From the NCBI RefSeq assembly GCF_035348955.1, contig NZ_DAOPRM010000002.1: a stretch of 64,000 nucleotides of DNA; one strand, given 5' to 3'. This DNA comes from Ottowia sp. Its GTDB lineage: Bacteria; Pseudomonadota; Gammaproteobacteria; Burkholderiales; Burkholderiaceae_C. Under the pieces are notes generated by a model. That model did no database searches. It saw only the letters and a list, made by a program, of their open reading frames with translations, and was not told the DNA's origin. A program made the translations under genes and the position numbers. Positions 6,110-63,697 of the stretch are shown piece after piece (the first letter of the stretch is position 1; each line of letters begins with the position of its first letter).

Positions 6110-6226
6110 CCCCCCTGAGTCGCCTGCGGCGCCTTCCCCCCTTTTGCTGCGCAAGGGGGGACAACGCCAGCGGGCGGGCCAAGCCCTTCCGCGGCGTTCG
6201 CTGGATTGGCCTGCTCCGCGGCCACC
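6110..6226 (+). repeat. Family A repeat after fis stop
   Basis: ccccctgagtcgcctgcggcgccttcccc..gggggacaacgcc..ggcgttc..ggcctgctccgcggcc. Confidence 0.85.
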
Positions 6227-6238
6227 GGTGAGGGGGAT

Positions 6239-6301
6239 GCTTTGGTTTTGATAGCTGCCGGCGCTTGTCGGGTGGGCGCTGGGGGCTTTTTCTATTTCTA
6301 A
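6239..6301 (+). repeat. Family B motif copy
   Basis: gctttggttttgatagc-tgccg-gcgc-ttgtcgggtgg-gcgc-tgggggcttttt. Confidence 0.8.
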
Positions 6302-6316: not shown

Positions 6317-7948
6317 ATGAATGCACTGATTTCCGTTTCGGACAAGACGGGCGTGGCCGAGTTTGCGGCGGCGCTGGTGGGGCTGGGCTTCAACCTGCTG
6401 TCGACCGGCGGCACGGCCAAGCTGCTGCAGGAGGCGGGGCTGCCCGTGACCGAGGTGGCCGAGGTGACGCGCTTTCCGGAGATGCTGGATGGCCGCGTGA
6501 AGACGCTGCACCCGGCCGTGCACGGCGGCCTGCTGGCGCGGCGCGACCTGCCGGCGCACATGCAGGCGCTGGCCGACCACGGCATCGGCAGCATCGACCT
6601 GGTGGTGATCAACCTGTATCCGTTCGAGTCCACGGTGGCACGCAAAGGCTGCACGCTGGCCGACGCGATCGAGAACATCGACATCGGCGGGCCGGCCATG
6701 GTGCGCAGCGCGGCCAAGAACTGGCAACACGTGGCCGTGCTGACCGACGCCAGCCAATACGCGCCGGTGCTGGCCGAATTGCAGGCCCATGAGGGCAAGC
6801 TGTCCGACAAGACGCGCTTCGGGCTGGCGGTGGCGGCGTTCAACCGCATCAGCAACTACGACGCGGCCATCAGCGATTACCTTTCTGCTATTGATTTCGA
6901 AGCTGCAGGCGCAGATGGCGTGCCGGCCAGGGGCCTGTTTTCTGCACAAAGCAATGGCCGATTCGTCAAGCTGCAGGACTTGCGCTACGGCGAAAACGCC
7001 CACCAGCAGGCGGCGCTGTACCGCGACCTGTACCCGGCGCCGGGCTCCATCGTCACGGCCGAGCAGTTGCAGGGCAAGGAGCTGAGCTACAACAACATCG
7101 CCGACGCCGACGCGGCGTGGGAATGCGTCAAGCAGTTCGACACGGGACCGAACGCGACCCTGGGCGCGGCCGCGGCCTGCGTGATCGTCAAGCACGCCAA
7201 CCCGTGCGGCGTGGCGGTGGGTGCGGATGCACTGCAGGCCTACCAGAAGGCCTTCAAGACCGACCCGACCAGCGCCTTTGGCGGCATCATCGCCTTCAAC
7301 GTGCCGGTCGATGGTGCGGCGGCCGAAGCGGTGTCCAAGCAGTTCGTCGAGGTGCTGATGGCGCCCGACTTCACGCCCGAGGCGCTGGCCGTGTTGCAGG
7401 CCAAGGCCAACGTGCGCGTGCTGCGCATTCCGCTGGACGGCGTGCAGCGCGACGGAGCCACCGACTGGGCGCGTGGCCAGAACGCCATCGACGTCAAGCG
7501 CGTGGGCTCGGGCCTGTTGATGCAGACCGCCGACAACCACGAGCTGAAGCTGTCGGACCTGAAAGTGGTGACGAAGAAGGCGCCGACCGATCAACAGCTG
7601 CAGGACCTGCTGTTCGCCTGGAACGTGGCCAAGTTCGTCAAGAGCAATGCCATCGTCTTCTGCAAGGACGGCATGACGATGGGCGTGGGCGCGGGGCAGA
7701 TGAGCCGCCTGGATTCGGCGCGCATCGCCAGCATCAAGGCCGGCCACGCCGGCTTGTCGCTGCAGGGCACGGCGGTGGCGAGCGATGCGTTCTTCCCGTT
7801 CCGCGACGGGCTGGACGTGGTCATCGACCACGGCGCCACCTGCGTGATCCAGCCCGGCGGCTCGATGCGCGACCAGGAAGTGATCGACGCGGCCGACGAG
7901 CGGGGTGTGGCGATGGTGTTCTCAGGCGTGCGGCACTTCAGGCACTGA
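6317..7948 (+). CDS. purH: Bifunctional AICAR formyltransferase / IMP cyclohydrolase
   Basis: [47 protein letters not shown]. Confidence 0.97.
6887..6950 (+). repeat. Family B motif embedded in purH coding sequence
   Basis: gctattgatttcgaagc-tgcag-gcgc-agatggcgtgc-cggc-caggggcctgtttt; local run of AT-ending codons. Confidence 0.65.
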
Positions 7949-23499: not shown

Positions 23500-23501
23500 T
23501 T

Positions 23502-23562
23502 GCTCCCAAAACCAGAGCTGCCAGCCCTTGCGGGGCAAGCGCCAAAGCCTGATTTGATTGAT
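23502..23562 (+). repeat. Family B motif copy
   Basis: gctcccaaaaccagagc-tgcca-gccc-ttgcggggcaa-gcgc-caaagcctgatttgattga. Confidence 0.75.
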
Positions 23563-27002: not shown

Positions 27003-27064
27003 TTTTGAATAAAAACCTTGCCAGCGCTTGCTTATAAAGCGCGGATAGCTATCATTTTCATAAC
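27003..27064 (-). repeat. Family B motif copy
   Basis: rc: gttatgaaaatgatagc-tatcc-gcgc-tttataagcaa-gcgc-tggcaaggtttttattcaaaa. Confidence 0.8.
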
Positions 27065-27083
27065 AACATCCATTCCATCCACC

Positions 27084-30852: not shown

Positions 30853-30945
30853 CCGCAGGCTCCACTGCTTCGCATGTTCCGCCACCCCCCTTTCAGGGGG
30901 CAATGCCAGCGGCCGGGCCAAGCCCGCTCCGCGGCAGCCCTGGAG
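30853..30945 (+). repeat. Degenerate family A repeat after fccB stop
   Basis: ccccc..ggggg-caatgccagcggccgggccaagcccgctccgcggca, similar to 38986 copy. Confidence 0.6.
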
Positions 30946-35357: not shown

Positions 35358-35421
35358 TATGGGCGTCCAATATGCCCCTTGCGCTTGTCTGACTTGGGTT
35401 TGTTGCTATTAATAAGTTAGC
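35358..35421 (-). repeat. Family B motif copy
   Basis: rc: gctaacttattaatagc-aacaa-accc-aagtcagacaa-gcgc-aaggggcatattggacg. Confidence 0.65.
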
Positions 35422-35451
35422 GATCGCCGATCGCTGCTACCGGAGACCGCC

Positions 35452-35890: not shown

Positions 35891-37264
35891 ATGACGAACG
35901 ACATCCTTTCCCCCGCGCCGGCCAGCGTGCCCGGCGGCAGGCTGCGCAAGGCGCCGGAAAATTTCCTCGACCCGGCGGGTGTGCGCACCGTGTTCGCCGA
36001 AGGCAAGCGCGGCCGGCGTGACTTCATCCGCAGCGCGTTTGCGGCGGCGCTGGCGGGCGGCGCCGCGGCGGGCGCGCAGGGCAAGTCGGTGGGCGAGGGC
36101 GATCCGGCCATCCTGAAGCTGCCGGCGCACAGCACCGGCCTGGGCCAGCCGGTGGCCACCGACGGCTACGGCCTGCCGTCCAGGTACGAAGGCAACGTGC
36201 AGCGCCGGCCCAGCCCGGGCCTGACGCAAACCAGCCAGGCGTCGGTGTCGTTCGCGCCGCTGCAGTCGCTGTTCGGCATCGTCACGCCCAGCGGGCTGCA
36301 CTTTGAGCGGCATCACCAGGGCTGGTGGGACATCGATCCGGCGCAGCACCGCTTCATGGTCAACGGCATGGTCAAGTCGCCCAAGGTGTTCACCATGGAC
36401 GAGATCATGCGGCTGCCGAGCGTGAGCCGCTTCCACTTCATCGAATGCGGCGCCAACACCGGCATGGAATGGGGCAACGTGGCCGTGCCCACCTGCCAGT
36501 ATTCGCACGGCATGCTTTCGTGCAGCGAATTCACCGGCGTGCCGCTGATCACCTTGCTGGAGCTGGCGGGCGCCGACCTGAAGGCCGGCAAGTTCGTGCT
36601 GGCCGAGGGCGCCGATGGCTCCAGCATGACGCGCACCATCCCCATGAGCCTGATCACCAGCGGCCAGGTGCTGGTGGCCTACGGCCAGAACGGCGAGATG
36701 CTGCGACCCGAAAACGGCTACCCGCTGCGCCTGGTGGTGCCGGGCGTGCAGGGCGTCAGCTGGGTCAAGTACCTGCGCCGCTGCGAAGTGGGCGACCAGC
36801 CCTGGGGCGCCAAGGACGAAGCGGTGCACTACATCGACCTGATGCCCGACGGCACGCACCGCCAGTACACCAGCATTCAGGAATGCAAGAGCGTCATCAC
36901 CACGCCCTCGGGCGGGCAGGTGCTGCTGGACAAGGGCTTCTACAACATCAGCGGCCTGGCGTGGTCGGGCCGCGGCAAGATCAGGCGGGTGGACGTGTCG
37001 GTCGACGGGGGCCGCAACTGGCGCACCGCGCGCCTTGAATCGCCGGTGATGGACAAGTGCCTGACGCGCTTCAACATCGACTGGGTGTGGGACGGCAAGC
37101 CCACCATCGTGCAAAGCCGCGCCATGGACGACACCGGCTACGTGCAGCCGACGTCGCGCGAATTGCGCGCGGTGCGCGGCACGCGCTCCATCTATCACAA
37201 CAACTCGGTCCAGTCGTGGCTGGTACAGGAAAACGGCGAGGTGAAGAATGTCCAGCTCGCGTGA
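35891..37264 (+). CDS. soxC: Sulfane-sulfur dehydrogenase molybdoprotein SoxC
   Basis: Tat RRDFI, TPSGLHFERHH, FIECGAN, GYPLRL, YHNN. Confidence 0.95.
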   Translation: MTNDILSPAPASVPGGRLRKAPENFLDPAGVRTVFAEGKRGRRDFIRSAFAAALAGGAAAGAQGKSVGEGDPAILKLPAHSTGLGQPVATDGYGLPSRYEGNVQRRPSPGLTQTSQASVSFAPLQSLFGIVTPSGLHFERHHQGWWDIDPAQHRFMVNGMVKSPKVFTMDEIMRLPSVSRFHFIECGANTGMEWGNVAVPTCQYSHGMLSCSEFTGVPLITLLELAGADLKAGKFVLAEGADGSSMTRTIPMSLITSGQVLVAYGQNGEMLRPENGYPLRLVVPGVQGVSWVKYLRRCEVGDQPWGAKDEAVHYIDLMPDGTHRQYTSIQECKSVITTPSGGQVLLDKGFYNISGLAWSGRGKIRRVDVSVDGGRNWRTARLESPVMDKCLTRFNIDWVWDGKPTIVQSRAMDDTGYVQPTSRELRAVRGTRSIYHNNSVQSWLVQENGEVKNVQLA

Positions 37265-38438
37265 CAAGCACGCCCCCAGGCTGCGCGGACTTCCGCTGGG
37301 GGCGACACCAGCCTCCCGGCCAAGCGGGATCGGCGTTGTCTCTCGAACAGCGCTCGCTGCCAGCAGCTTGCGCGTTGCCGTTGCCGCAGGCATGGCGGCC
37401 GCGCTGGCGCTTGGCGCCACGGCGGCAGTGGCGCAAGGAAAATTCCCCGGCATTGGCCGCGACGCCACACCGAAGGAAGTGGCGGCCTGGGACATTGACG
37501 TGCGCCCCGACTTCAAGGGCCTGCCGCCCGGCAGCGGCAGCGTCGCCAAGGGTCAGGACGTGTGGGAAGCCAAGTGCGCCGGTTGCCATGGTGTGTTCGG
37601 CGAATCCAACTCGGTGTTCTCGCCGCTGGTCGGCGGCACCACGGCCGAGGACGTGAAGACCGGCCGCGTGGCCATGCTCAAGCGCGCCGATTACCCCGGC
37701 CGCACCACGCTGATGAAGGTGCCCACCGTGGCGACGCTGTGGGACTACATCCACCGCGCCATGCCGTGGGACAAGCCCAAGTCGCTGACGCACGACGAGG
37801 TGTATGCCGTCACCGCCTTCCTGCTGAACCTGGGCCATGTGGTGCCCGACGACTTCACGCTGTCGGACAAGAACATCGCCGAAGTGCAGCACCGCCTGCC
37901 CAACCGCAACGGCATGAGCACCGCGCACGCCATGTGGCCCGGCAAGGAGCTGGGCGGCGCCGCCGCGCCCGACGTGCGTGCCACCGCCTGCATGAGTAAC
38001 TGCGGCCCCGAGCCGAAGGTGGCGTCGTCGCTGCCCGACCACGCGCGCAACAACCACGGCAACCTGCGCGAGCAGAACCGCACCGTCGGCCCGCAGCGCG
38101 GCTCCGACACCACCCGGGCCGAAGGCAAGCTGGGCGACGCCGCCGGCCCGGTCAAGGTGGTCGGCCCCGCCGGCGGTGCCGCCAGTCCCAACGCCGCGGC
38201 CATTGCCCTGACGCAAAAGCACGCCTGCACCGCTTGCCATAACATCGAAGGCAAGCTGGTTGGCCCGAGCTTTGTCGACATCGCCAAGAAGCACGGCGGC
38301 AAGGCCGACTACTTGGCCGGCAAGATCAAGGCAGGCGGCGCGGGCGTTTGGGGCGAAGTGCCCATGCCGCCACAGACACTGCCCGACGAGGACACCAAGG
38401 CCATCGCCGCGTGGCTGGCCGCGGGCGCCAGCAAATGA
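37248..38438 (+). CDS. soxD: Diheme cytochrome SoxD with repeat-derived N-terminal segment
   Basis: WDIDVRPD, CAGCHG, DYIHRAMP, PNRNG, CTACH. Confidence 0.93.
   Translation: MSSSRDKHAPRLRGLPLGATPASRPSGIGVVSRTALAASSLRVAVAAGMAAALALGATAAVAQGKFPGIGRDATPKEVAAWDIDVRPDFKGLPPGSGSVAKGQDVWEAKCAGCHGVFGESNSVFSPLVGGTTAEDVKTGRVAMLKRADYPGRTTLMKVPTVATLWDYIHRAMPWDKPKSLTHDEVYAVTAFLLNLGHVVPDDFTLSDKNIAEVQHRLPNRNGMSTAHAMWPGKELGGAAAPDVRATACMSNCGPEPKVASSLPDHARNNHGNLREQNRTVGPQRGSDTTRAEGKLGDAAGPVKVVGPAGGAASPNAAAIALTQKHACTACHNIEGKLVGPSFVDIAKKHGGKADYLAGKIKAGGAGVWGEVPMPPQTLPDEDTKAIAAWLAAGASK
37270..37362 (+). repeat. Degenerate family A-like repeat after soxC stop, in frame in the soxD N-terminus
   Basis: cccccaggctgcgcggacttccgctgggggcgacaccagc..ggccaagc..ggcgttgtc. 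Confidence 0.5.
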
Positions 38439-38985: not shown

Positions 38986-39085
38986 CCCCCCTGAGTCGCC
39001 TGCGGCGCCTTCCCCCAGGGGACAACGCCAGTGGCCGGGCAAAGCCCGCTCCACGGCGTTCCCGAACGGCCTGCTCCGCGGCCAC
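38986..39085 (+). repeat. Family A repeat between soxY and soxZ
   Basis: ccccctgagtcgcctgcggcgccttcccccaggggacaacgcc..ggcgttccc..ggcctgctccgcggcc. Confidence 0.85.
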
Positions 39086-41148: not shown

Positions 41149-41247
41149 CCCCCTGAGCCGCTTCGCGGCTTCCCCCTGAAAGGGGGACAACGCTGGTGGC
41201 CGGTGCAAGCCCGGCCACGGCGTTCCCGCATGGCCTGCTCCGCGGCC
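41149..41247 (+). repeat. Family A repeat directly after soxX stop
   Basis: ccccctgagccgcttcgcggcttccccctgaaagggggacaacgc..ggcgttccc..ggcctgctccgcggcc. Confidence 0.85.
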
Positions 41248-41264
41248 TTTTGAGAGCCTTGGAT

Positions 41265-42998
41265 ATGAACCTCACCAAACGCGAATTTCTGCAAGTCCTG
41301 AGTGCCGCCAGCGCAGCAGGCATGGGCCTTGGCAGCTATCAAAATGCAAGCGCACAGACGGCGGCCGAGGGGCTGTACGACATCCCCAAATTCGGCAACG
41401 TGTCGTTCCTGCACATCACCGACTGCCACGCGCAGCTCAAGCCCATCTACTTCCGCGAGCCCAGCGTCAATCTGGGCGTGGCCGACATGAAGGGCAAGCT
41501 GCCGCACCTGGTGGGCGAGCACCTGCTGAAGGTGGCCGGCGTCAAGCCCGGCACGGCCCAGGCGCACGCGCTGACCTACCTCGACTTCGAGCAGGCGGCG
41601 CAGCGCTACGGCAAGGTGGGCGGCTTTGCGCACCTGGCCACGCTGGTCAAGCGCCTGCGCGCCAGCCGCCCCGGCGCGCTGCTGCTGGACGGCGGCGACA
41701 CCTGGCAGGGCAGCGGCACGGCGCTGTGGACCAAGGGCCAGGACATGGTCGATGCCTGCAAGCTGCTCGGCGTCGATGTGATGACCGGCCACTGGGAATT
41801 CACCCTGGGCATGGACCGCGTGAAGGAAATCGTCGAGAAAGACTTTGCCGGCAAGGTCGACTTCGTCGCCCAGAACGTCAAGACACTCGACTTTGGCGAC
41901 CCGGTGTTCAAGCCCTACGTCATCAAGCCCATGAACGGCGTGCCGGTGGCCATCATCGGCCAGGCGTTTCCGTACACGCCCATCGCCAACCCGCGCTACA
42001 TGGTCAAGGACTGGGAATTCGGCATCCAGGACGAGAACATGCAGAAGATGGTCGACGAGGCCCGCGCCAAGGGCGCGCAGGTGGTGGTCGTCATCAGCCA
42101 CAACGGCATGGACGTCGATCTGAAGATGGCCAGCCGCGTGCGCGGCATCGACGCCATCATGGGCGGCCACACGCACGACGGCATGCCCGTGGCCAGCGTC
42201 ATCAAGAACGCCGGCGGCCAGACGCTGGTGACCAATGCCGGCAGCAACGGCAAATTCATCGGCGTGCTGGACTTTGACGTGAAGAACGGCAAGGTGGCCG
42301 ACTACCGCTACAAGCTGCTGCCCGTGTTTGCCAACATGCTGCCGGCCGACAAGGACATGGACGCGCTCATCACCAAAATCCGCGCCCCGTATGAAAGCAA
42401 ACTTGCCGAACAGCTGGGCGTGACCGAAGGCCTGCTGTACCGCCGCGGCAATTTCAACGGCACGGGCGACCAGCTCATCGTCGATGCCCTGATGGAAGCG
42501 CAGGGCGCGCAGATCGCCTTCTCGCCCGGCTTCCGCTGGGGCACCACGCTGCTGCCCGGCCAGCCCATCACGCGCGAATGGCTGCTGGACATGACCGCCA
42601 CCACCTACAGCTACGCCACGCTGACCGAGATGAAGGGCGAGATGCTCAAGACCATCCTCGAAGACGTGGCCGACAACCTGTTCAACCCCGACCCGTACTA
42701 CCAGCAAGGCGGCGACATGGTGCGCGTCGGCGGCCTGACCTACGCCTGCGACCCCCTGGCCAGCCAGGGCAAGCGCATCAGCGACATGCGCCTGAAGGGC
42801 CAGCCCATCGACGCCAGCAAGAACTACCTCGTCGCCGGCTGGGCGCCCGTCGCCGAAGACGCGTCGAAAGCCGGCAACAAGATGGTGTGGGACGTGATCG
42901 AGGACTGGCTCAAGTCCAAGGCCGGCAAGGTGACACCGCGCCAGGTCAACCAGCCCAAGCTGACCGGCGGGCTGCCGAATCCGGGGTATGCGGGCTGA
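41265..42998 (+). CDS. soxB: Thiosulfohydrolase SoxB
   Basis: KREFLQ Tat-like, HITDCHAQL, FREPSVNLG, DGGDTWQG, GGHTHD, QQGGDM. Confidence 0.97.
   Translation: MNLTKREFLQVLSAASAAGMGLGSYQNASAQTAAEGLYDIPKFGNVSFLHITDCHAQLKPIYFREPSVNLGVADMKGKLPHLVGEHLLKVAGVKPGTAQAHALTYLDFEQAAQRYGKVGGFAHLATLVKRLRASRPGALLLDGGDTWQGSGTALWTKGQDMVDACKLLGVDVMTGHWEFTLGMDRVKEIVEKDFAGKVDFVAQNVKTLDFGDPVFKPYVIKPMNGVPVAIIGQAFPYTPIANPRYMVKDWEFGIQDENMQKMVDEARAKGAQVVVVISHNGMDVDLKMASRVRGIDAIMGGHTHDGMPVASVIKNAGGQTLVTNAGSNGKFIGVLDFDVKNGKVADYRYKLLPVFANMLPADKDMDALITKIRAPYESKLAEQLGVTEGLLYRRGNFNGTGDQLIVDALMEAQGAQIAFSPGFRWGTTLLPGQPITREWLLDMTATTYSYATLTEMKGEMLKTILEDVADNLFNPDPYYQQGGDMVRVGGLTYACDPLASQGKRISDMRLKGQPIDASKNYLVAGWAPVAEDASKAGNKMVWDVIEDWLKSKAGKVTPRQVNQPKLTGGLPNPGYAG
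41286..41351 (-). repeat. Family B motif embedded in the soxB signal-peptide coding sequence
   Basis: rc: gcttgcattttgatagc-tgcca-aggc-ccatgcctgct-gcgc-tggcggcactcaggacttgcag. Confidence 0.7.
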
Positions 42999-43581: not shown

Positions 43582-43659
43582 CTGGCTTCCAGCCGCTCTT
43601 GCTTTGCGGCGTCGTCCGAAAGTGGACACCCGCCTGGCTCGGGCGTCCAGCGTTGGGCT

Positions 43660-43722
43660 GCTTCTCTTTAGATAGCGCTTGGCGCTTGTTCTGAAAGCGC
43701 TTGCGGCTGATTAGACTGTCAA
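43660..43722 (+). repeat. Family B motif copy
   Basis: gcttctctttagatagc-gcttg-gcgc-ttgttctgaaa-gcgc-ttgcggctgattagac. Confidence 0.8.
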
Positions 43723-48413: not shown

Positions 48414-48610
48414 ATCGCGACGTCCCCGCCAATGCCCGAAGCGAAGCGGCCGCCAAAGCGCCCGTCATGCCCCGTGCCGCTCCACATGTCCGATGGCCGC
48501 GGAGCAGGCCACGCGTGGGCGCCGTGGCCGGGCTTGCACCGGCCAGGGGCGCCGTCCCCCTCCCATAGGAGAGGGGGAAGACGCCACAGGCGTCTCAGGG
48601 GGTGCGTCAT
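48410..48610 (-). other. 66-aa repeat-derived bridge ORF overlapping gspM stop and gspN start (ATGA at both ends)
   Basis: tcat at 48607-48610 and 48410-48413; open frame MTHPLRR...GDVAI. Confidence 0.5.
48495..48602 (-). repeat. Family A repeat after gspM stop
   Basis: rc ccccctgagacgcctgtggcgtcttccccctctcctatgggagggggacggcgcc..ggcctgctccgcggcc. Confidence 0.85.
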
Positions 48611-49140: not shown

Positions 49141-50354
49141 GGCGCGGCCACCTGTCGCAGCACGGTGCTGTCGCCTTCGGCGGACAGGGCGTAGCCTTGC
49201 GGGCGCAGGCGCTGGTTGGCGTCGGTCAGCGCGGCGGCGGCCACCGTGACGCCTTTCAGCCGCAGCTCGCCTGCTGCAAATTCGATAGCTGTCGGCGCAG
49301 TACTGACGGGCGCTGACTGCGCAAAAGCCTGCAGCATCGGCTCCAGGTCGCGCGGCGAGGCGGCGCCGGTGGCCTGGCGCAGCTGGGCGACCTCGCGCGC
49401 CATCTGCGCCGGCGCGTCCACCACCACCTTGACGGCGGGGAAAGTCTGGGTCAGCAGCGCCTGGTTGGCGGCGCGGCGCGCGGCCAGATCGTCCTGCGTG
49501 CGCCAGGCCAGCACGTTCAGGCCGATCAGGTTGGCCAGCACCAGCAGCGCCAGCCCCCAGCGGGCTGGCCGCCACAGCGGGGCGTGCAGAAAGTCGCGCC
49601 ACAGCGCACCGGCGCGCTTGGCGGCGCGCGCGCGCCCGGTGCGGGCAAACTGGAACTGCGCCAAATCCCACCCGCTGCGGCTGGCGCGCAGCAGGCGCTG
49701 CGCGGGCGATTCGATGGCGACCGGTTGCTGCAGCGTCTGTTCGGCCAGCGCCGCCACGGCCGGTTCGGCGCGCAGCTCGGGCAGCGGCGCGTCGTCGGGG
49801 CGGGGCGGCAGCAGCGCCAGCGTGCCGACGTCGAGCGGCAGCGCCTGCGCGCCGCCCGGCACCTCGGCGCCGCTCATCAGCAGCAGGGCGCGCTCCGGCG
49901 TGCCGGTCACCAGCCATTGCAGCGGCCCGTCCTGCGGCGGCAGCTCGGGCACGATGCGGCTGACCGGGCGGCCGGCGGCTTCCAGCGCGGCCATGTGGTC
50001 GGCCAGCCAGGCGCGGTCGCATACGGCCACCCAGGCGCTGGCGCCGGCCTGTGCGCCGGGCGCCAGGGCGAAGTGAAGGCCTTCGACGTCGTCCAGCACC
50101 TGCTCTTCCAGCAGGCCGTCGAGCACGGTGCGCAGGCGCGGCGAGGCGGGGCCAACGCCGCGGGGCAGCGTCACCCGCTGCCACGACAGCTGGCTGGCCG
50201 GCGCCACGGCCACCACTTCGACACCGCGCCCGGCCGGCGGCAGCAGCGCCGGCGCCGCGCTGCCATGCGCCGCCACGCCCTGGCCGTCGTCCGAGGTGGC
50301 AAAGTCATAGCCGGCCGGCGCACCCGGCGGCAGGGCGATCAGAAGGAGGCTCAT
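49137..50354 (-). CDS. gspL: T2SS protein GspL
   Basis: LSWQRV.LP, LEEQVLDD..LHFAL, WDLAQF, TM, TFP.V.VVVDAP.QM. Confidence 0.9.
   Translation of the reverse strand: MSLLLIALPPGAPAGYDFATSDDGQGVAAHGSAAPALLPPAGRGVEVVAVAPASQLSWQRVTLPRGVGPASPRLRTVLDGLLEEQVLDDVEGLHFALAPGAQAGASAWVAVCDRAWLADHMAALEAAGRPVSRIVPELPPQDGPLQWLVTGTPERALLLMSGAEVPGGAQALPLDVGTLALLPPRPDDAPLPELRAEPAVAALAEQTLQQPVAIESPAQRLLRASRSGWDLAQFQFARTGRARAAKRAGALWRDFLHAPLWRPARWGLALLVLANLIGLNVLAWRTQDDLAARRAANQALLTQTFPAVKVVVDAPAQMAREVAQLRQATGAASPRDLEPMLQAFAQSAPVSTAPTAIEFAAGELRLKGVTVAAAALTDANQRLRPQGYALSAEGDSTVLRQVAAP
49273..49335 (+). repeat. Family B motif embedded in gspL coding sequence (antisense)
   Basis: gctgcaaattcgatagc-tgtcg-gcgc-agtactgacgg-gcgc-tgactgcgcaaaagcc. 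Confidence 0.7.
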
Positions 50355-57301: not shown

Positions 57302-57323
57302 GGGAGATGCTCCGATTCGCTAT

Positions 57324-58013
57324 TTATTTGGTAGCTGGCTGCGCTTGTTGAACGCCGGGAAAGGCGGCATTCAATGCCAAATTGAGCCGAAGCACGTTGA
57401 CGCGCGGCTCGCCCAGCAAGCCAAGCACGCGGCCTTCCGTATGCTGACTCAAAAATTGTTGCACCTGCTCCAAGGGGATGCCGCGCGCCTTGGCCACGCG
57501 CCCCACCTGGGCTTGCGCGTTGGCGACCGAGATGTGCGGATCGAGCCCGGAGGCTGAGGCGGTGACGGCGTCCACCGGCACTGGCGCGGTAGAGCCGAGC
57601 CCGTTGGTTTTGCGGTAATCCGCCACGCGCTGCGTCACGGCGTCAATCAGCGCCTGGTTGGTCGGCCCCTGGTTGCTGCCAGCGGACAACGCGGCGTTGT
57701 AGGGCGCGGCGACGGTCTTGCTGGCGTCCTGCGGATCGGGCGCGCTGGTGGCGCTGGGGCGCGGGTGGAAGTGGCGCGCGTCGCTGAAATGCTGGCCGAT
57801 TAGGTCGGAGCCGATCAACGCGCTGCCGCGCTCGATCAGGCTGCCGCCCGCTTGGCGCGGCATCAGCATCTGCGCCACGCCGGTGGTCAGCAGCGGATAA
57901 ACCAGGCCGGTGAGCAGCGCCACGAAGACGGCGCCGCGCAGGCAGGGGCCGATCAGGCCACGCAGCGGTGATGCGGCAGCCACGGTGTCGGGGGTGATTT
58001 CAAGTGTGTTCAT
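57324..58013 (-). CDS. kdpC: KdpC
   Basis: GLVYP, GS.LIGQ.F, FHPRPSA, VTASASGLDPHIS, VNVLRLN. Confidence 0.95.
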   Translation of the reverse strand: MNTLEITPDTVAAASPLRGLIGPCLRGAVFVALLTGLVYPLLTTGVAQMLMPRQAGGSLIERGSALIGSDLIGQHFSDARHFHPRPSATSAPDPQDASKTVAAPYNAALSAGSNQGPTNQALIDAVTQRVADYRKTNGLGSTAPVPVDAVTASASGLDPHISVANAQAQVGRVAKARGIPLEQVQQFLSQHTEGRVLGLLGEPRVNVLRLNLALNAAFPGVQQAQPATK

Positions 58014-61210: not shown

Positions 61211-61956
61211 CACGAGCCCCCCACGAAGTCGGGCCGCACCCAGTCGATCACCAGCGGCCCGGCCAGCGGCTGGCCGGGCGCCAGGGTGAGGAACAGGCGC
61301 ACGCCGTCCGGCAGCACGCGCGTGTCGGCGCCCGACGGCGCGCCGCTGGACAGCGGGTGGGTCCAGGCGTTCTGGCGGAAGTAGTGCAGTTGCCAGTCCA
61401 GCGCGGCGGCCACGGTGACCGCCTGCGCGCCGCCCGGCAGTGCGCCGGTGGCGGCGTCGCCGCCCTGGCCCCACGCCGCGGCCGCGTCCCAGGCGCTGGC
61501 CCACGCCGCCTGCGACAGCACCGGCGCCGACTGCCAGCGCTGCCACTGCCCGCCGGTGCTGCGGCGCGTCCACGCCACCACGCGCAGCCCCGCCGCCGCA
61601 TCGCCCGCGGCGGTGCGGGTGATGCGCAGCGTGTGCCCGTCCCACGCCAGGCTGCGCTGCAGCGCGGGCGGCGGCTGTGCGGTCGGCGAATCGGCGGCAG
61701 CGGCCGGCCACGTCATCATCGCGTCCAGATCGGTGCGCCACTGCGCCAGCCCCGCCTGCGTCGCCAACACCTCGTCCGTGTACCGCCGCGTCGCGTCCTG
61801 CGCCCGCAACATCCCGTCGATCCCGCGCCAGCTCAGCACCGCGATCACCGCCATGATCGTCAGCGCGACCAGCACTTCGATCAAGGTAAAGCCGCGCGAT
61901 TTTTTCAAGCTAAATACGGCCTCAGCGCTTTCCAAATCGGCGCACTCAGCTATCAA
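61210..61956 (-). CDS. gspJ: Minor pseudopilin GspJ; start uncertain (TTG 61956 or TTG 62286)
   Basis: SRG|FTLIEVLVAL, SWRGIDGM, QWRTDLD, LPDGVRL. Confidence 0.85.
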   Translation of the reverse strand: MIAECADLESAEAVFSLKKSRGFTLIEVLVALTIMAVIAVLSWRGIDGMLRAQDATRRYTDEVLATQAGLAQWRTDLDAMMTWPAAAADSPTAQPPPALQRSLAWDGHTLRITRTAAGDAAAGLRVVAWTRRSTGGQWQRWQSAPVLSQAAWASAWDAAAAWGQGGDAATGALPGGAQAVTVAAALDWQLHYFRQNAWTHPLSSGAPSGADTRVLPDGVRLFLTLAPGQPLAGPLVIDWVRPDFVGGS

Positions 61957-61965
61957 AACCGTAGT
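61901..61965 (-). repeat. Family B motif forming the gspJ leader
   Basis: rc actacggttttgatagc-tgagt-gcgc-cgatttggaaa-gcgc-tgaggccgtatttagcttgaaa. Confidence 0.8.
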
Positions 61966-61988
61966 TTCGCCACCCGCCACCCCCCATC

Positions 61989-62280
61989 GCGGCCGCGCAG
62001 CAGGCCGCCCCAAACGGCCGCGGAGCAGGCCACGCGCGAACGCCGTCGCCGGACCTGCGCCGGCGACTGGCGTTGTCCCCCTGGGGGGATGGCGCCGAAG
62101 GCGATCTGGAACCTGCTCGAAGCCCCGGCGCGAGGCGGATGGGATGCGGCTTGGGATGGGATGCCAGGCGCGATTCGCCGCCAATGGCTCGTGCCATTGG
62201 CAAGAATCGCAACGCCGCAGCCCGCCCAAGTCCGCGCCCAGCCGTCCGCGGCGGGGCTTCGAGCAGGTTCCCAGGGGGGG
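61989..62280 (-). repeat. Family A repeat (interrupted by a MITE) after gspI stop
   Basis: Near-identical to the 62900-63041 and 63563-63689 copies. Confidence 0.8.
62108..62271. mobile_element. 164-bp MITE-like element with 20-bp perfect terminal inverted repeats
   Basis: GGAACCTGCTCGAAGCCCCG ... CGGGGCTTCGAGCAGGTTCC; splits a family A copy at ccccctg|ag. Confidence 0.75.
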
Positions 62281-62899: not shown

Positions 62900-63041
62900 G
62901 CGGCCGCGCAGCAGGCCGCCCCCAAAGGCCGCGGAGCAGGCCACGCCAGAACGCCGTCGCCGGACCTGCGCCGGCGCCTAGCGTTGTCCCCCTGGGGGGA
63001 TGGCGCCGCAGGCGACTCAGGGGGGATGTCATCTCAGGGGG
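62900..63041 (-). repeat. Family A repeat after gspH stop, with a ~16-bp tandem duplication of its 5' end
   Basis: rc atgacatccccctgag-atgacatcccccctgagtcgcctgcggcgcc... Confidence 0.8.
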
Positions 63042-63044
63042 ATG

Positions 63045-63515
63045 TCATCTGACTTCAAAAGGCCGCAGCCCATCGCTCACGACCTCCAGCGTGGCCGCGC
63101 CGTCGCCCGCCGCGCCCAGCAGCACCACCGCCTGCGCGTCGATGATGGGGTCAGGCCCCAGCCGCAGCGCGGCGTTGCCCACGGTGCGCGTGCGGGTGTC
63201 CAGCCAGTGCGTGGGCAGCGGCGGGCCGCCGGGCGGCAGGCCGTCCCACGCAAAGCCGGTGGCGGTGGCGCGCCAGGTGATCGGCACGCCGGCCGCCCGC
63301 GACTGCGCCCGCGCCGATTCCAGCAGCGCCGCCAGCCGGTCGGCCTCGCGCGCCAGGGCGCTCGCCCCGCTGTCGCGCAGCGCCAGGCTGGCCACGGCCG
63401 TGCCGATGGCGATGACGGCAATCACCACCATCAACTCCAGCAGGGTGAAACCGCGCCGGTTCTTCAAGCAAAAATGGCCTGGAGCGCTGGAGGGATAAGC
63501 GCGAGCAGCTATCAA
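63045..63515 (-). CDS. gspH: Minor pseudopilin GspH; start uncertain (TTG 63515 or TTG/GTG ~63539)
   Basis: RRG|FTLLELMVVIAVI, READRLAALLESARA.SR, LGPDPII, SDGLRPF. Confidence 0.88.
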   Translation of the reverse strand: MIAARAYPSSAPGHFCLKNRRGFTLLELMVVIAVIAIGTAVASLALRDSGASALAREADRLAALLESARAQSRAAGVPITWRATATGFAWDGLPPGGPPLPTHWLDTRTRTVGNAALRLGPDPIIDAQAVVLLGAAGDGAATLEVVSDGLRPFEVR

Positions 63516-63524
63516 AAAAGCAGT
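63461..63524 (-). repeat. Family B motif forming the gspH leader
   Basis: rc actgcttttttgatagc-tgctc-gcgc-ttatccctcca-gcgc-tccaggccatttttgcttgaag. Confidence 0.8.
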
Positions 63525-63562
63525 ATCTTTCGCCACCAACCGACACCCCCCTTCCCAATCAG

Positions 63563-63689
63563 CGCGGCCGCGCAGCAGGCCGCCCCCAATGGCCGCGGAG
63601 CAGGCCACGCCAGAACGCCGTCGCCGGACCTGCGCCGGCGACTGGCGTTGTCCCCCTGGGGGGATGGCGCCGGAGGCGACTCAGGGGGG
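63563..63689 (-). repeat. Family A repeat after gspG stop
   Basis: rc cccccctgagtcgcctccggcgccatccccccagggggacaacgcc..ggcctgctccgcggcc. Confidence 0.85.
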
Positions 63690-63697
63690 AACATCTA

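Follow-up and report, generated by a model that had tools for sequence, protein, structure and literature searches.

A dispersed two-dyad DNA motif in the interdomain linker of an Ottowia purH gene, probably written in place

The purH gene of an Ottowia genome carries, in codons for the linker between the two domains of its product, a real copy of a DNA motif (family B) that recurs hundreds of times in the same genome, and the purH codons are spelt toward that motif wherever the protein permits. We consider it likely that this segment arose in place and is maintained as a signal at the level of DNA. The window, by which we mean the whole stretch of 64,000 nucleotides that was analysed, comes from a genome whose nearest named matches are Ottowia, family Comamonadaceae; the purH product matches TIGR00355 at 695 bits (cut-off 528). 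The features in and around the segment are as follows, in window positions:

6317 to 7948, + strand: purH, bifunctional AICAR transformylase/IMP cyclohydrolase, 543 aa, intact
6886 to 6943, + strand: family-B copy within purH, S190-S209, interdomain linker (nhmmer, PWM and synonymous test)
6887 to 6904, + strand: head dyad GCTAT-N8-WAGC(T), coding for AIDFEA, the best-conserved part across orthologs
6909 to 6912, + strand: first GCGC block (motif columns 24-27), intact
6923 to 6925, + strand: Pro203 codon CCG, which disrupts the second GCGC block (columns 39-42, 6924-6927)

A family-B HMM trained on 134 other copies from the genome that have the head GCTAT-N8-WAGC and then GCGC-N9-11-AGCGC, with the purH copy excluded, found the purH site (6885-6943) at E=3.7e-4, which places it at rank 569 of about 700 copies with E<0.01; the HMM gives 704 sites at E<=0.01 in the genome and one in the reversed genome. 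By PWM the site scores 33.6 bits and the next best position in purH -20.6, 54 bits lower. Synonymous resampling with purH's own codon usage never attained the site's score (p<=0.0003, null mean -13.9), and this result and the reversed-genome control together rule out a chance match. The purH copy is a below-average member of its family (57% identity to the consensus, with the second GCGC block disrupted). A sequence-only reading of this DNA had described purH as ending its codons in G or C almost throughout and switching to A or T where the motif lies, with the frame intact. This is borne out: A/T-ending codons number 54 of 544 overall and 14 of the 23 from L189 (position 6881), the gene's highest window, and the reading frame runs unbroken through the copy. 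The switch is less exact than that reading had it, since it holds for the flanks (L189-D200 and F208-Q211) and not for G201-L207 between them, which are GC-ending, and the run of codons quoted there begins at 6881 rather than 6887. The A/T-rich tail of the copy extends to about 6950.

Two routes had been put forward for the segment: in-frame insertion of about 21 codons into a linker, in the manner of the Rickettsia palindromic elements, or overwriting of existing codons by selection or gene conversion. About 220 PurH linkers were gathered and their lengths measured between fixed anchors. Most outgroups, like many members of the family, have 43 aa between the anchors, and the remaining linkers have 47-54 aa; 36 of 39 Ottowia have a 50-aa linker, with or without the motif. 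A full family-B copy would add about 20 codons, and an indel of about 21 codons, looked for among the ortholog linkers, was not found, the largest step to the common short linker being 7 aa; the insertion claim is therefore not supported for purH. Variovorax, Xenophilus and Pseudorhodoferax have a 50-aa linker with SAIDF[D/E]A spelt in GC-ending codons and no motif, and a linker of the form SAID...VPAR..F is also present in G313, a genome with zero strict copies. The first codons of the motif coincide with S-A-I and the last with R-x-x-F, residues that are common in short linkers too. A proline five residues before that Phe (F-5) is found in 158 of the 159 linkers of 48-52 aa, and its codon disrupts the second GCGC block, which is 91-97% invariant in family B, in every motif-bearing purH. 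Since the linker ends and the proline are conserved irrespective of the motif, it is the motif that fits around the protein and not the reverse. Overall, these comparisons bear out the sequence-only reading in part: they support overwriting in place and do not support a Rickettsia-like insertion.

The segment does lie between the two PurH domains, as had been proposed, in the loop after the cyclohydrolase domain's final helix (164-190 in the model), and it is gapped in alignment to the solved PurH sequences 3zzm and 4ehi. The AlphaFold PurH monomer has low confidence at 208-238 (pTM 0.56), so the loop assignment alone was used. One genome within Ottowia, G014, has a short 43-aa linker (L363), and G305 (L036), which belongs to another genus, falls close to Ottowia on PurH trees; these oddities may reflect exchange of purH or effects of binning.

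An older event can also be envisioned: in a Comamonadaceae ancestor the purH linker would have received an in-frame insertion of a non-autonomous element, about 11-13 codons next to it being lost, and the element would afterwards have eroded or been domesticated as a signal. In its favour, the peptide AIDFEA is what the motif head would encode, one tree places the motif-bearing purH lineages close to the base of the clade, and some family-B sites do have extra length. However, such an event requires a chance deletion that left S-A-I and R-x-x-F in register, and the nearly invariant proline at F-5 is absent from the consensus-encoded peptide; conserved termini, target duplications and near-identical copies were not seen, and no Y1/RAYT transposase tracks family B. 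We regard this history as unlikely. One-step gene conversion from another copy, through partial similarity at the linker ends, would preserve length as observed and would make use of the resemblance between linker ends and motif ends, but we judge it more improbable still: no donor was found, the best other copy in the genome being 67% identical to the purH copy (the nearest-neighbour median is higher, at 74%), the Pro codon, fixed by protein constraint, was in no case overwritten, and at one coding site compared between G020 and G000 the differences are scattered substitutions with no converted block. Within the overwriting branch of the sequence-only reading, gene conversion is thus not supported.

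Across the 11 family-bearing Ottowia, the codons for Ala191, Glu195 and Ala196 end in A or T in all 11, and 9 of the 21 motif codons are A/T-ending in at least 70% of species, as against 5 of 499 elsewhere in the gene; by the same criterion the count is 0 of 21 in family-poor Ottowia. Mean A/T3 in the family-bearing species (median 84% aa identity) is 0.51 in the motif and 0.08 outside, and in family-poor Ottowia 0.28 and 0.21. The purH synonymous signal reaches p<0.01 in 21 of 27 Ottowia with at least 17 motif heads but in only 1 of 12 with at most 6 (39 Ottowia genomes; Spearman 0.65). The same nucleotides in orthologs from genomes that lack the family would have meant a coincidental match, and what these genomes have here is different, GC-ending codons. 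Loss of family B needs about 7 changes on the PurH tree and there are only 3 independent pairs on well-supported branches, so the link between the purH site and the genome-wide family is to be read as a clear pattern and not as a formal test. The motif is also present at the purH site of G305, of G206 and of a clade of three near Rhodoferax-like genomes; motif heads are carried by G305, G206 and G205 (the clade member checked), clearly AT-rich ones in G206 and G205. Grouping the motif-bearing purH rows in one clade is rejected, though weakly (p-AU 0.037; a minimum of 4 changes), the clade for this test having been chosen after an earlier tree had been inspected. The scatter could reflect either repeated, independent gains by a peptide that was pre-adapted or a single old gain followed by losses. 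Motif-rich G306 and G144 have a 50-aa linker without the motif, and the purH site is therefore optional.

An explanation at the level of the purH mRNA, either a hairpin or slow codons between domains, would suit the presence of rare codons in an interdomain linker. It is largely refuted, and we give it hardly any credence: the segment's folding is no more stable than that of shuffled sequences (z=+0.93), an Rfam search returned chance matches only, there is no covariation, coding copies of the family lie on either strand, and the rare codons are gone once the family is lost. For family B as a whole, a structured RNA was likewise rejected for want of an Rfam match and of covarying structure.

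Family B is a motif of 58 columns with two dyads. The genome holds 716 non-overlapping copies of fixed length (660 of 663 are indel-free), which grade into partial matches as a continuum and have a nearest-neighbour identity of median 74% and maximum 86%; a repeat finder at default settings missed the family because its copies are too divergent. Conserved termini or a flanking consensus were sought among the copies and not found, and a covariation test detected no compensatory change in either dyad, so that what is conserved is sequence rather than structure. The copies are indifferent to strand, with a forward/reverse orientation of 52/60 and, among the about 128 copies that a codon-model filter places well inside coding frames, 61 sense and 67 antisense. 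They are spaced more evenly than random (variance/mean 0.78, with 4 spacings below 300 bp against about 36 expected) and are sparser in low-GC windows (0.3-0.8 copies per 5 kb) than in high-GC windows (1.4). Apart from the purH site, the 64-kb window contains these copies:

405 to 462, + strand: family-B copy, PWM 59.4
6238 to 6295, + strand: intergenic family-B copy in the gap between the upstream fis-like gene and purH, PWM 50.9 bits, nhmmer E=7e-6
23501 to 23558, + strand: family-B copy, PWM 35.9
27008 to 27065, - strand: family-B copy, PWM 52.0
35365 to 35422, - strand: family-B copy, PWM 33.2
43659 to 43716, + strand: family-B copy, PWM 46.4
49272 to 49329, + strand: family-B copy antisense within a 420-codon open frame (C2:93315), PWM 38.3
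57318 to 57375, + strand: family-B copy, PWM 36.5
61909 to 61966, - strand: family-B copy, PWM 47.4
63468 to 63525, - strand: family-B copy, PWM 43.5

A borderline B-like match lies in the SoxB signal peptide at 41295-41352 (- strand), where the head is present and the rest is weak (PWM 1.7 bits). The window also contains a second repeat family, GC-rich, about 100-130 bp long and with copies 87-97% similar, one of which (6110-6217) lies just upstream of the intergenic family-B copy before purH. Further copies are:

1679-1741, 30894-30935, 38986-39057, 41152-41252 and 48490-48590: GC-rich repeat
61989-62115, 62900-63026 and 63564-63690: GC-rich repeat

At about 37230-37440 of the window (C2:81287), G346 and G020 have a family-B copy, and this genome has a longer, different sequence that starts with a copy of the GC-rich repeat.

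The equal length seen at the purH linker extends to most of the other genes compared. In six of eight further genes (alr, tsaD, polA, dxr, recN and methylmalonyl-CoA mutase) length is unchanged relative to motif-poor Ottowia; the other two show differences, of 1-2 aa in aroA and 6-11 aa in a kinase. Orthologous family-B sites are retained at 82 of 92 positions in G346 and 55 of 60 in G020 but at 0 of 28 in motif-poor G016, and at retained sites conservation is 98-100% in the key columns but as low as 38-55% in the spacer columns. Some sites, a minority, have 54-78 nt more than their counterparts in a relative, a few intergenic ones about 70 nt, which may point to an insertion route for some copies or to deletion after loss. 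The best candidate for a true insertion is a coding copy at C30:4841 of G000, which sits in a 26-codon in-frame stretch missing from motif-poor G016. The G000 copy at C2:18263-18320 is missing (-70 nt) from the very close relative G346 and is flanked by a 6-bp direct repeat, TCACCA, which could be a target duplication or a trace of slipped deletion.

The strict family-B pattern was found in 98 of 300 genomes of the family, patchily distributed, and in 0 of 16 from elsewhere in the order; in a viral collection it occurred in 47 stretches only, nearly all with single matches. It undercounts dialects (G206 has 0 strict matches and 165 heads), and a head-only pattern was used for the genus. G206, G002, G012 and G305 have 117-173 motif heads and few strict matches, which suggests lineage dialects in the downstream half of the motif, although in G305 the head count is no higher than its control.

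Several classes of dispersed repeat invite comparison. REP/REPIN sequences, which are associated with RAYT transposases, are likewise short, abundant and dyad-containing and often lie near gene ends; family B differs in that its consensus has no GTAG tag, hairpin pairing is not conserved, a substantial share of its copies is coding, and no Y1 transposase tracks it: Y1_Tnp was not found in motif-rich G022 and G024 and is present in motif-poor G001, G016 and G018. A MITE was rejected, as terminal inverted repeats and near-identical copies were not found (maximum identity 86%, with one possible 6-bp flanking repeat). The Rickettsia palindromic elements are insertions of about 150 bp that add a peptide (PMC10969869). 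Like family B, they are palindromic repeats lying in frame within metabolic genes, and the purH copy too lies in a tolerant protein loop; unlike them, family B leaves length unchanged in purH and six of eight other genes, and what its copies have in common is key bases, not descent from one ancestral sequence. Among dispersed repeats from Comamonadaceae, the BRE of Bordetella and other Betaproteobacteria (75-91 bp, 69% GC, 1-29 copies, tandem; PMC3110155) is a different, GC-rich repeat and was rejected as an identity for family B, and VeiPR1 is described as unique to Verminephrobacter eiseniae (PMC3975124). The second, GC-rich repeat in the window is possibly BRE-like.

The closest analogues may be the uptake signals USS of Pasteurellaceae and DUS of Neisseriaceae, which are short and non-palindromic with 9-10-bp cores (PMC2817400). 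Family B shares with them hundreds of copies, both orientations, spacing more even than random, sparseness in atypical DNA, a mutational origin that does not involve insertion, and a coding spelling at tolerant protein positions. It differs in having, in place of a short non-palindromic core, about 60 bp with two dyads at fixed spacing, and its density is lower (about 0.2 per kb against 0.8-0.9). The print literature searched for family B yielded two unexplained fragments only, the spaced motifs GCTTAT(N)5AAGCG of Acidovorax ebreus and ATAGCT(N)22CAAAAG of Polaromonas naphthalenivorans reported by Tong et al. 2017 (PMC5217627). The first corresponds to family-B columns 26-41, and the second, which starts with the right arm of the head dyad, is probably a dialect. 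In that work both are short statistical pairs, mostly intergenic, and the full motif, the overwriting of coding sequence and an evolutionary analysis are absent.

We infer that the purH site is one of many in a genome-wide recognition motif of about 60 bp of double-stranded DNA, built by point substitutions in an existing linker peptide, SAIDF[E/D]A...P.R..F; it would be read by a protein and retained by a force acting on the DNA sequence itself, whether selection or drive. By analogy with USS and DUS, that force could be biased uptake of motif-bearing DNA in natural transformation, a molecular drive, which is the one we prefer, though only tentatively. Natural transformability is on record for two Acidovorax species and for Verminephrobacter, and in the latter there is evidence that uptake is selective (PMC4212676). 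In Ottowia, comEA is present in all 17 genomes with at least 80 motif heads, in 4 of 11 with 17-61 and in 3 of 13 with at most 6; G016 and G001 have no comEA at its place after lapB. This link comprises 4-5 independent contrasts only, almost none opposite (sign test p~0.5), so that comEA loss going with motif loss is a lead and not support. At the family level there is no link, comEA being absent from 4 of 33 motif-rich genomes and from 46 of 301 overall (the 301-genome tallies include the unpublished G184, on which no claim depends), and the association is not significant after phylogenetic control. The complete, motif-rich genome G061 lacks comEA by two methods, and a comEA-less clade (G003, G339, G351, G353) retains the purH site. 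Neither ComEC nor ComP_DUS separates motif-rich from motif-poor genomes, both being present in each, and DprA is retained in five comEA-less genomes. The ComEA-like protein of G000 on C77 (L311:853-1380, - strand) matches TIGR01259 below the cut-off, and its long tail is of low complexity, made up of MSG repeats; another ComEA-like gene is at C13:17357-17551.

The same in-place origin would be expected if a cytoplasmic chromosomal protein bound the motif, for nucleoid organisation, segregation, repair or self-DNA protection, and ordinary selection maintained it. The two-dyad, fixed-spacing geometry of about 60 bp resembles the footprint of a multimeric protein, the spacing is even, orientation preference and covariation are absent, and the competence genes tested do not follow family B at the family level. 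However, no candidate protein was found, repeated loss within a genus and patchiness across genera are odd for a core chromosome function, and the Ottowia comEA hint favours uptake; we rate such a binder as possible and only slightly less likely than uptake. Returning to uptake, the fullest form of that reading, by which Comamonadaceae would have evolved, independently, a third signal for the uptake of self DNA, a two-dyad motif of about 60 bp and so far longer than USS or DUS, that rewrites housekeeping proteins such as PurH and decays with partial loss of the uptake machinery (comEA in Ottowia), is conjectural and something we would not yet lean on.

What is new here is the history of the Ottowia purH site, the proline constraint, the decay of the site after loss of the family, and the comEA lead with its counter-examples. 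The persistence of the site follows that of the genome-wide family, and it makes a clean test case, in which a proline constraint overrides the motif and motif-bearing and motif-free relatives are found in one genus. That a 60-bp DNA word could take over 20 codons of a housekeeping gene through substitutions implies that a strong force, so far undescribed, acts on DNA sequence in a common environmental family. If family B is a protein-binding site, it marks a chromosome-wide system without a known reader; as an uptake signal, it would account for the selective uptake reported for Verminephrobacter (PMC4212676) and could aid the development of genetic tools.
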